Source: a virus
Taxonomy: Duplodnaviria; Heunggongvirae; Uroviricota; Caudoviricetes
Direction: 5' to 3' (one strand)
Virus record (IMG/VR): IMGVR_UViG_2778261268_000002
DNA: 64,000 bases
This document shows, piece after piece, positions 2,406 to 3,450 of the stretch. Under the pieces are notes generated by a model, which saw only the letters and a program-made list of their open reading frames with translations, was not told the origin of the DNA and did not search any database. The stretch's first letter is position 1. Each line of letters begins with the position of its first letter. The translations under genes and the position numbers were made by a program.

Positions 2406-2642
2406 ATGCAGAACAATCCGAACAAATGTCGAACGCTATGGGTGCGGTTATATATTTATGCCGTCCTCTGTTTGATTGTGTCACTGGTTCTGTATGTTTG
2501 GCTTTTGCCAAATATGATCTCATCTAACAGCACAATACTTGTATTGTTGGGAGTCCTTTTCGCGCTCATTTACCCGGCTTTCGCAGTAGTCTTTTTTCGT
2601 GAAAAAACCAGGAAATTAATTAATGAAAAAAACGTTGATTAG
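2406..2642 (+). CDS. small integral membrane protein (78 aa, two hydrophobic segments)
   Basis: Strong RBS GGAGTGAGAGG before ATG; hydrophobic composition; end overlaps the downstream SPFH gene. Confidence 0.5.
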   Translation: MQNNPNKCRTLWVRLYIYAVLCLIVSLVLYVWLLPNMISSNSTILVLLGVLFALIYPAFAVVFFREKTRKLINEKNVD

Positions 2643-3450
2643 TGCAGCGATTATTTTGGGTTCTTTATGTCTGACCGGATGCGATCGGGTAGAGCCAGGT
2701 AACGTAGGGATCAAAGTAAATAAGCTGGGGGATGATAAAGGTATCGGTGAAGTAGTTGGTGTTGGTCGCTACTGGACAGGCTTGAATACTGAAGTTTATA
2801 TCTTCCCGACCTTTAAGCAAATGAAGACATACGATGAGCCGTTCAGCTTCCAGATGAGCGACGGAACAACCATTGGTTACCACATCGGCGTAGCCTACAA
2901 GGTTGATCCAGCAAAAGTCACAACGGTATTTCAGACCTATCGCAAAGGTGTAGATGATATTACTGATACCGATCTACGCCAGAAGGTTGCAGATGCTCTG
3001 AACCGGTTAGCCAGCAAAATGACCACCGACAAATTTATCGACGGTGGCAAATCTGAATTGCTTGATGCAGCCCTTAAAGACATTCAGGAAGAAATGACGC
3101 CAATCGGCATTCAGGTGATGAGCCTCTCTTATGTAGGTAAGCCAGAATATCCGCCAACAGTTATTGACAGTATTAACGCCAAAGTTACGGCAAACCAAAA
3201 AACCCTGCAACGCGAGCAAGAGGTCAAACAACGTGAAGCAGAGGCCAACATGCTGCGCGCGGAAGCTGCCGGACAGGCTGATGCTATTCGCACAAAAGCC
3301 CAGGCCGAAGCTGATGCCATTCGTTTACGTGGTGAAGCTCTGCGCCAGAACCCCGGTGTTATGGAGTTGGAAGCGATCAACAAATGGAACGGTACATTAC
3401 CGCAGTATATGACCAGTAATGCCGCTGTTCCGTTTGTTCCGGTGAAATAA
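2623..3450 (+). CDS. SPFH/band-7 (stomatin/HflC-like) domain lipoprotein
   Basis: Signal peptide with lipobox LTGC; C-terminal Ala/Glu/Gln-rich coiled coil typical of SPFH proteins; RBS AGGAAA. Confidence 0.7.
   Translation: MKKTLISAAIILGSLCLTGCDRVEPGNVGIKVNKLGDDKGIGEVVGVGRYWTGLNTEVYIFPTFKQMKTYDEPFSFQMSDGTTIGYHIGVAYKVDPAKVTTVFQTYRKGVDDITDTDLRQKVADALNRLASKMTTDKFIDGGKSELLDAALKDIQEEMTPIGIQVMSLSYVGKPEYPPTVIDSINAKVTANQKTLQREQEVKQREAEANMLRAEAAGQADAIRTKAQAEADAIRLRGEALRQNPGVMELEAINKWNGTLPQYMTSNAAVPFVPVK

Follow-up and report, generated by a model that had tools for sequence, protein, structure and literature searches.

A two-gene SPFH lipoprotein cassette in the ban operon of a P1-like phage, a candidate membrane scaffold for lytic growth

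The 64,000-nucleotide window of viral DNA analysed here (IMG/VR record IMGVR_UViG_2778261268_000002, Caudoviricetes) belongs to a P1-like phage (Punavirus) and carries, among the tRNA genes of the ban operon, two overlapping genes that encode a 78-residue membrane protein with two hydrophobic helices and a 275-residue SPFH (band 7) lipoprotein (Table 1). The pair is interpreted as a minimal two-component SPFH membrane scaffold, encoded by an accessory cassette that can be exchanged within the C1-repressed ban operon; the cassette is taken to be dispensable under laboratory conditions, interchangeable with the TerB-type tciABC genes of phage P1, and active in lytic growth. This statement taken as a whole is judged to be about evenly balanced between right and wrong; its part concerning identity and architecture is held with high confidence, and its part concerning the physiological role is tentative. 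The SPFH gene at this place is already labelled in public records, and what is absent from the papers found is the partner that is not of the NfeD type, the fused relatives that retain a lipobox, the replacement of tciABC, the spread over unrelated temperate and virulent phages, and the strength of selection.

Pfam assigns residues 22-208 of the larger protein to Band_7 (PF01145), with an expect value (E) of 9.7e-31 and 107.6 bits against a cut-off of 23.6, and the protein also matches PHROG 200, 'lipoprotein', over residues 1-274 (2.9e-113). Its AlphaFold model, with a predicted local distance difference test score (pLDDT) of 77, consists of strands and helices over residues 19-175 followed by one helix over residues 178-242. 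The best Foldseek matches in the PDB are HflK/C (7vhq, 2e-13), erlin1/2, prohibitin, stomatin and flotillin, at a probability of 1.00, and all of these proteins form rings, domes or cages. An earlier note on this DNA, made from the letters and an open reading frame (ORF) list, had described a two-gene membrane module with an SPFH/band-7 lipoprotein bearing a coiled coil, and this description is borne out by Pfam, PHROG, the lipobox and the long helix of the model; the ORF list and ARAGORN likewise agree with its placement of the two ORFs between the Asn/Thr/Ser tRNA genes and tRNA-Ile2. A comparison of sequences with the PDB places HflK, QmcA and prohibitin nearest, with E values no better than 1e-5 to 1e-6, and the NCBIfam equivalog cut-offs are missed for both hflC (24.7 bits versus 134.4) and hflK (23.3 bits versus 159.4), so that, as judged by sequence, the protein is a distinct subfamily and not HflK/C. 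Its most conserved feature is the C-terminal motif K-W-N-G-x-L-P, in which W255, G257 and P260 are invariant or nearly so over 41 diverse relatives. This motif lies in the C-terminal part of the model (residues 245-275), where confidence is low, as would fit, in a prediction made for the monomer only, a segment that becomes ordered only in the oligomer.

The N-terminus of the SPFH protein reads MKK, then TLISAAIILGSLC, then L-T-G-C20 and D21, in agreement with the lipobox pattern [LVI][ASTVI][GAS]C. Cys20 is invariant in alignment A3 and almost so in alignment A1, and the strict lipobox pattern fits 87 of 122 full-length unfused representatives. At +2, 17 of 21 close relatives have Asp and the other four have Glu. 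By the sorting rule of E. coli, a lipoprotein with Asp at +2 stays in the inner membrane, and the protein is predicted to be lipid-modified, retained in the inner membrane and facing the periplasm like HflK/C. In a common variant of the protein (P0112 and P0115, on contigs of ~110 kb, P0115 being present on 175 contigs), the lipobox Cys is replaced by Tyr (…IIGYDRVEPG…), so that lipid modification is impossible at that position.

With HflK/HflC of E. coli the phage protein shares an SPFH domain, a long helix, a C-terminal cap segment, an N-terminus anchored in the inner membrane and a body that is predicted to be periplasmic, but the pair is carried by a phage, consists of one SPFH gene instead of two adjacent paralogues, and has as its anchor a lipid and a separate two-helix protein where HflK/C has an N-terminal membrane helix. 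The likeness bears on an alternative in which the pair is a dedicated modulator of FtsH that mimics or competes with HflK/C and thereby alters the turnover of lysis-lysogeny regulators, sigma-32 or LpxC. HflK/C is the top match among solved structures both structurally and by sequence, NCBIfam gives weak hflC and hflK matches, the predicted periplasmic orientation is that of HflK/C, and lambdoid-type prophages hold the pair in the leftward early region, which in lambda encodes the FtsH inhibitor cIII. This alternative is nevertheless regarded as quite improbable, given an identity to HflK/C of only 17-21% with scores far under the equivalog cut-offs, the presence of a single SPFH gene and no HflK-HflC pair, and the frequency of the family in virulent phages, which take no lysogeny decision. 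The lysogeny decision of P1 is not known to depend on FtsH.

The hydrophobic helices of the 78-residue protein comprise residues 17-33 and 46-62. The protein matches PHROG 1130, 'membrane protein', over residues 12-76 (1.6e-15), a family placed in the PHROG category 'moron, auxiliary metabolic gene and host takeover', and its closest homologues reach an E of 1e-41. Pfam and NCBIfam gave only sub-threshold matches of the kind that any hydrophobic peptide gives; no NfeD domain was found with either, and the protein is too short to hold one. Between the helices lies a conserved loop with the family core P-x-L/M-I/V-S-x-x-S/T/D, for which the 60% consensus of 79 aligned separate and fused versions is P.LIS...T..V..G. 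Because basic residues are present at both ends of the protein, both termini would be cytoplasmic and the conserved loop periplasmic, a predicted topology that exposes only ~8 residues to the periplasm.

The two genes behave as one unit. They overlap by 20 nucleotides, an AGGA stands 11 nucleotides before the ATG of the SPFH gene, and in 83 of 84 phage loci a profile search that took in unannotated copies found the partner gene immediately before the SPFH gene. In the sole exception (locus L045, 5700-6000), a mobile element, represented by the end of a transposase-type gene, is inserted in the small ORF, of which the final ~60 bases are intact together with the SPFH gene. In a species-level genome collection the partner is upstream in 38 of 80 loci, mostly those with at least 36% SPFH identity, which include Dyella, Pseudomonas, Sutterella, Leptospira and a Dependentiae genome. 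The partner profile gave no upstream match at the chromosomal copies of Shigella flexneri and E. coli (L087 and L088, 91% identity). When neighbouring ORFs were clustered in 70 diverse loci, no neighbour other than the partner was conserved across phyla; conservation of other neighbours was confined to genera, as with the ribonucleotide reductase and the BlaR1-type peptidase in Dyella.

The second line of evidence for the unit is provided by relatives in which the two proteins are fused. A search of 1.84 billion representative proteins yielded 218 clusters of SPFH relatives at E < 1e-30, and among the best 150 of these 218 there are 20 with a partner-like N-terminal extension of 55-100 residues, in which two hydrophobic helices are followed by a basic linker and then by a third helix with a lipobox at its end. 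A profile made from 19 fused extensions scores 41.4 bits (E 1.7e-11) on the 78-residue protein, compared to a best score of 12.7 bits for 2000 composition-matched shuffles, so that the 78-residue protein and the N-terminal domain of these fused proteins are homologous. For one fused relative, P0168, the AlphaFold model (pLDDT 83) has three N-terminal helices followed by the same body as the SPFH protein of the window. The lipobox Cys is invariant in 19 of 19 fused relatives (alignment A5, which holds P0168, P0172, P0173 and 16 others), where it is buried 75-120 residues inside the protein, past two membrane helices. This arrangement suggests that the fused precursor may be lipid-modified and cut internally at the lipobox, which would be unusual. 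A spanin-like pair of an inner-membrane protein and an outer-membrane lipoprotein was also considered, and was rejected on account of the ~8 predicted periplasmic residues of the partner, the fused forms that put both parts into one membrane, and the Asp at +2 of this clade.

Alleles with six or nine A in the homopolymer run within the gene overlap merge both ORFs into a protein of 347 or 348 residues (P0001, P0330, P0331, P0333 and P0335). They occur on at least 16 contigs in two sequence backgrounds and resemble the natural fusions of distant relatives; another variant, P0334, has a 16-residue insertion at the junction of the two ORFs. The run comprises seven A in all 37 P1-like loci of IMG/VR. 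The variation could be a slippage polymorphism or a sequencing error in the homopolymer.

The arrangement recalls the SPFH-NfeD operons, exemplified by E. coli QmcA-YbbJ and the archaeal stomatin pair PH1511-PH1510, in which an SPFH protein also has a small membrane partner, the partner gene also comes first, the genes overlap or abut, and some genomes fuse the two (PMC2636767). The phage partner differs in being only 78 residues long, with two helices and no NfeD domain, and the phage SPFH protein differs in having a cleavable lipoprotein signal and a predicted periplasmic location, whereas QmcA faces the cytoplasm. The SPFH classification of Hinderhofer et al. 2009 gives no partner for the subfamilies that are not associated with NfeD and makes no mention of lipoproteins or phages (PMC2636767). 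Eukaryotic prohibitin and erlin share the chain architecture, the predicted cage-forming fold and the location of the body on the non-cytoplasmic side, but at 14-17% identity, and they are hetero-oligomers of two paralogues that have neither a lipid anchor nor a two-helix partner.

Comparison of the copies in P1-like, P2-like and lambdoid phages (the window versus L004, L005 and L054) separates the two proteins. The mature SPFH proteins are 93-96% identical, the signal peptides 30-55% and the partners 19-40%. In the mature SPFH region the synonymous substitution rate (dS) is ~1.0 and the nonsynonymous rate (dN) is ~0.01, for a dN/dS of ~0.01, and the mature protein is under extreme purifying selection. 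Ratios this low are usual in the core machinery of cells but out of the ordinary among accessory genes of phages. The value agrees with a protein of which nearly every surface is used, for self-assembly, for contact with a conserved host partner, or for both, and it does not fit an arms-race gene. Recombination at the lipobox was dropped as a cause of the divergence of the partners and signal peptides, being unnecessary; the mature region is itself close to saturation at synonymous positions.

Both ORFs are real genes and not chance ORFs, because the homologues of each span phyla and because of the dN/dS of the SPFH gene. The probability that the pair is simply the ordinary tci genes of P1, or that the small ORF is a chance reading frame beside a single real SPFH gene, is practically negligible. 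The pair does occupy the same position as tciABC in P1, and the records of RCS47, Stx2 phages and RefSeq E. coli plasmids do not annotate the small ORF, but there is no similarity to tciABC, and the small ORF has close homologues, a PHROG family, a conserved position across phyla and fused counterparts. Homology to P1 (NC_005856, L002) stops at ~2279 and restarts at 3469, nine bases before the CAT tRNA gene, at 97.7% identity, and P1 has tciA-tciB-tciC in between. No nucleotide homology to tciABC was found over 2280-3468, no match to TerB or DUF3927 was found in the pair, and TciB and TciC score ~3 bits each against the partner profile. The earlier note had pointed to the tci region of P1 for comparison, allowing that the pair might be the ordinary conserved tci genes; the comparison assigns the pair to different genes that replace tciABC, with a partner that is unlike TciB and TciC. 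What the two cassettes have in common is the slot in the ban operon between tRNA genes, the combination of one larger protein with one or more small membrane proteins, and their nonessential, variably present character, but they have no relation of sequence or domain, TciA being of the TerB family, TciB of the DUF3927 family, and both TciB and TciC being small membrane proteins.

The SPFH cassette is also present in RCS47, vB_EcoM-Ro157c2YLVW, vB_EcoM-813R1 and several records named 'P1', and RCS47 and Ro157c2YLVW match the cassette of the window from 2235 onward. Among 5426 complete E. coli genomes, 423 have a match to the SPFH pair (192 near full-length, mostly on plasmids of ~95 kb) and 388 have a match to tciABC (170 near full-length), so that the two occur at similar frequencies. 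In a survey of P1-like plasmids, tciABC was counted as one of eight variable regions and reported as 'lost' from nearly half of the plasmids, the replacement being left unnamed (PMC9603915). The apparent loss of tciABC in about half of P1-like plasmids is replacement by the SPFH cassette. In a CRISPR interference study of P1, each gene from dmt to dbn was scored as nonessential for plaque formation (PMC10695390), which makes the cassette slot an accessory one.

Upstream of the tRNA genes and the cassette, the Oban stretch of the window is base-for-base the P1 stretch annotated as the C1-controlled operator Obanab with the promoters P1ban/P2ban, and it is likely to be the control point of the whole downstream operon. 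On the + strand no terminator-like site was found from the stop codon of the SPFH gene to ban. The suggestion of the earlier note that the pair is co-expressed with the ban operon is therefore plausible, all of these genes being on the same strand.

Relatives of the SPFH protein were detected by tblastn in 392 of 50,697 phage records. In the P2-like phage P88, the pair is part of the early operon, with cox on one side and the replication gene on the other; in Stx2 phages and phiP27 it lies between the repressor gene and xis/int, on the same strand; in Pseudomonas and Pantoea prophages it lies between the gene for an S24-type repressor and the integrase gene, again on the same strand; and on a 108-kb contig of Yersinia pestis it is beside genes for gp32-like, RecA-like and NinX proteins. 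Obligately virulent carriers include the N4-like Erwinia phage S6, the FelixO1-like phage phiEa104, the LUZ24-like Pseudomonas phage TL, phiCbK-type Caulobacter phages, Klebsiella myoviruses of ~145 kb and Lak megaphages. On inspection of S6, phiEa104, TL and one Klebsiella myovirus, the SPFH gene was located among early or DNA-metabolism genes, and the partner is present in S6 and in Klebsiella phage Iguana (38 and 47 bits). A role in lytic growth, rather than a service that a resting prophage provides, is indicated by the occurrence in virulent phages and by the early-operon position. In Dyella and Leptospira the pair is chromosomal, in a non-phage context among ordinary housekeeping genes, from which it appears that phages have borrowed a bacterial membrane module.

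Superinfection exclusion by phage proteins such as T4 Imm and Sp and P22 SieA offers an analogy for a different role, in which a periplasm-facing complex would block DNA entry or lysis from without, whether in a lysogen or during lytic growth, and so serve competition between phages. The membrane location of a two-gene module found on many mobile elements agrees with such a role, as does the proximity of the pair to immunity regions in lambdoid-type prophages; the spread into lytic phages is compatible with it, since virulent phages encode exclusion proteins too; and the alternative occupant of the slot is TerB-like, ter operons having been linked to phage inhibition (PMC9603915, PMC6799933). 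A superinfection phenotype had also been raised by the earlier note. The evidence collected here does not favour it: a search of PADLOC-DB 2.0 gave no match for the SPFH protein and one chance-level match for the partner (E 0.029, 11.8 bits, to a candidate model), no paper was found that links SPFH proteins to exclusion or defence, the chromosomal pairs of Dyella and Leptospira stand beside housekeeping genes, the dN/dS is the opposite of the rapid diversification that is usual in arms-race genes, and the spread over virulent phages favours a lytic role. Exclusion is on these grounds considered unlikely.

A search of the literature on SPFH proteins in connection with prophages, superinfection, defence, P1-like phages, holins and lysis inhibition found no functional study, and the only experimentally studied prophage SPFH protein found was PM0222 of Pasteurella multocida (OAZ06802.1), an HflK/C-like protein of a lambda-like prophage that is likened to the phage lipoprotein by description. 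It differs in that it was reported from outer-membrane vesicles and was investigated solely for its stimulation of host innate immunity (PMC9872710). By analogy, the pair might be a factor of lysogenic conversion, a surface or vesicle lipoprotein expressed by the prophage that alters the host envelope or interactions of the host with animals. PM0222 stimulated Toll-like receptors (TLR) 1/2 and its deletion attenuated virulence (PMC9872710), and the PHROG category of the partner includes morons. Conversion is nonetheless very improbable, because the family is found in many obligately virulent phages, the pair in temperate phages is inside early lytic operons and not a separately transcribed moron, the Asp at +2 of this clade predicts that the protein stays in the inner membrane, and PM0222 is likened to the protein by description. 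Any triacylated lipoprotein stimulates TLR2, so that a TLR assay is not specific.

The preferred reading, of a two-component scaffold acting in lytic growth, can be set out as a sequence of steps. The lipoprotein would be exported, lipid-modified and, according to the +2 Asp rule of E. coli, kept in the outer leaflet of the inner membrane with its SPFH domain in the periplasm, where it would oligomerise to a ring or dome. One two-helix partner per SPFH subunit would be the transmembrane part of the rim, standing in for the N-terminal helices of HflK/C, and the rim composed of lipid anchors and partners would allow the complex to enclose a region of the inner membrane. Its synthesis would take place early after induction or infection, along with that of the tRNAs and Ban, and up to programmed lysis the complex would condition the inner membrane of the infected cell, by sequestering or regulating inner-membrane proteins (for which a protease such as FtsH is a precedent), by buffering membrane stress, or by both.

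Several points weigh against this scheme. The location, oligomeric state and client proteins of the complex are all inferred. Asp at +2 is present only in the clade of enterobacterial temperate phages, other members having Tyr, Glu, Asn or Ser, so that inner-membrane retention is not generalisable and the E. coli rule would send some relatives to the outer membrane; the one prophage SPFH protein that has been studied, PM0222, was reported from outer-membrane vesicles (PMC9872710), with the likeness being one of description. The more distant phage homologues in phiEa104 and TL are without a partner. With partners only 19-40% identical, any contact with the SPFH protein must rest on the short conserved loop and on general features of the helices. 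A terminator-like hairpin at 846-865 sits between Oban and the cassette, so that transcripts from the ban promoters must read through it to reach the tRNA genes, the cassette and ban. A promoter scan of 600-4000 gave no sigma-70-like site, the known ban promoters included; being blind to these, the scan is uninformative about a separate promoter of the cassette, and the cassette may be expressed in the lysogen.

A broader proposal, which is doubtful, is that the pair is the phage-spread representative of an undescribed two-component system, in which a lipid-anchored, periplasm-facing SPFH cage is combined with a two-helix partner bearing the 'P-x-L-I-S' loop. In some bacteria both components would derive from one precursor that is cut at an internal lipobox, and virulent and temperate phages would deploy the system early to close off the inner membrane or divide it into compartments, as a guard, for instance, against DNA injected by competitors or against pore-forming suicide effectors of the host. 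If this were true, a phage phenotype would give a direct read-out of what an SPFH cage does, and if the internal lipobox of the fused relatives is indeed cut, it represents an unusual route to two membrane proteins from one precursor. The functions of SPFH proteins (stomatin, prohibitin, flotillin, HflK/C) are poorly understood despite recent structures of their cages. The module is a compact system, of one SPFH gene and a partner of 78 residues, that is dispensable to the cell, strongly selected, widespread and experimentally tractable, and its carriers include well-studied P1-like, lambdoid, P2-like and N4-like phages, for which burst size, lysis time, lysogenisation frequency and exclusion are available as read-outs.

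Two faults of annotation are corrected by these results, namely the label 'serine protease' and the missing small gene. The SPFH gene is labelled in public records as 'SPFH domain-containing protein', as 'lipoprotein' or, wrongly, as 'serine protease', for which there is no domain evidence. The partner gene is present yet unannotated in RCS47 (L001), in an Stx2 phage (L005) and in RefSeq E. coli plasmids (H31-H41). In LUZ24-like phages (TL, L169 2450-3274, and its relatives) the SPFH lipoprotein carries the label 'transposase fusion protein' or 'putative transposase', apparently a mistake of annotation passed on from one record to another.

Table 1. Positions in the window of the two-gene cassette, its parts and the neighbouring features of the ban operon
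Feature	Position	Strand	Basis
Oban, two overlapping inverted C1-repressor operators with ban promoters	653..680	+	ATTGCTCTAATAAATTT at 653-669, inverted partner 664-680
tRNA-Asn	1339-1414		ARAGORN
tRNA-Thr	1417-1492		ARAGORN
tRNA-Ser(TGA), left tRNA neighbour of the cassette	2056..2142	+	ARAGORN; Rfam tRNA clan 45.1 bits
Exchangeable cassette replacing P1 tciABC and leader	2280..3468	+	blastn versus P1 (NC_005856, L002)
Shine-Dalgarno stretch GGAGTGAGAGG directly before the ATG of the small gene	2395..2405	+	Sequence reading
Gene for the 78-residue two-helix membrane partner	2406..2642	+	ATG-start ORF
Loop motif P-N-M-I-S-S-N-S-T-I between the two helices, predicted periplasmic	2508..2537	+	Profile alignment
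Gene for the 275-residue SPFH (band 7) lipoprotein	2623..3450	+	ATG-start ORF; Pfam, PHROG, AlphaFold, Foldseek
Lipoprotein signal peptide and lipobox L-T-G-C (Cys20 codon 2680-2682), then Asp at +2	2623..2682	+	Sequence
Run of seven A inside the 20-nucleotide gene overlap	2626..2632	+	Sequence
SPFH/Band_7 domain (residues 22-208)	2686..3246	+	Pfam match
Long helix (residues 178-242), predicted coiled-coil 'wall' element of SPFH cages	3154..3348	+	DSSP on AlphaFold model
CAT-anticodon tRNA (P1 trnI, tRNA-Ile2), right neighbour of the cassette	3478..3553	+	ARAGORN; P1 annotation of the homologous gene
ban	3833-5203		ORF list
dbn	5203-6201		ORF list

The left end of the window holds the terminus of dmt (to 662), and from there the order is Oban, a leader, tRNA-Asn, tRNA-Thr, tRNA-Ser, the two-gene pair, the CAT tRNA, ban, dbn and baseplate gene 5. 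Within the leader, the stretch that the P1 record labels 'dicF-like' (window 777-878) is conserved and contains the strong terminator-like hairpin at 846-865; a search of Rfam (E up to 0.01) gave no DicF match for 777-878, and the label was not confirmed.

The stretch from tRNA-Thr to the cassette is a mosaic among P1-like phages. The tRNA-Ser(TGA) gene is not at the matching place in P1, RCS47 or Ro157c2YLVW; the D6 record has a tRNA-Ser annotated in the stretch that matches 2056-2142, and P7 matches the same stretch with nothing annotated there. An insertion of 161 nucleotides relative to P1, at 1699-1859, contains an ORF for a protein of 46 residues (1717-1857). Just 5' of the small gene, window 2252-2372 gives a partial, sub-threshold match to the Rfam small RNA family STnc100 (40.1 bits versus a gathering score of 47), spanning model positions 31-147 of 206. 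A 26-nucleotide motif occurs three times between the tRNA genes (1544-1569, 1938-1963 and 2238-2263), one copy being an arm of a 22-nucleotide inverted repeat (1860-1881 / 1936-1957) with 91% complementarity, and the motif copies and the inverted repeat may be processing sites or remnants of tRNA genes.

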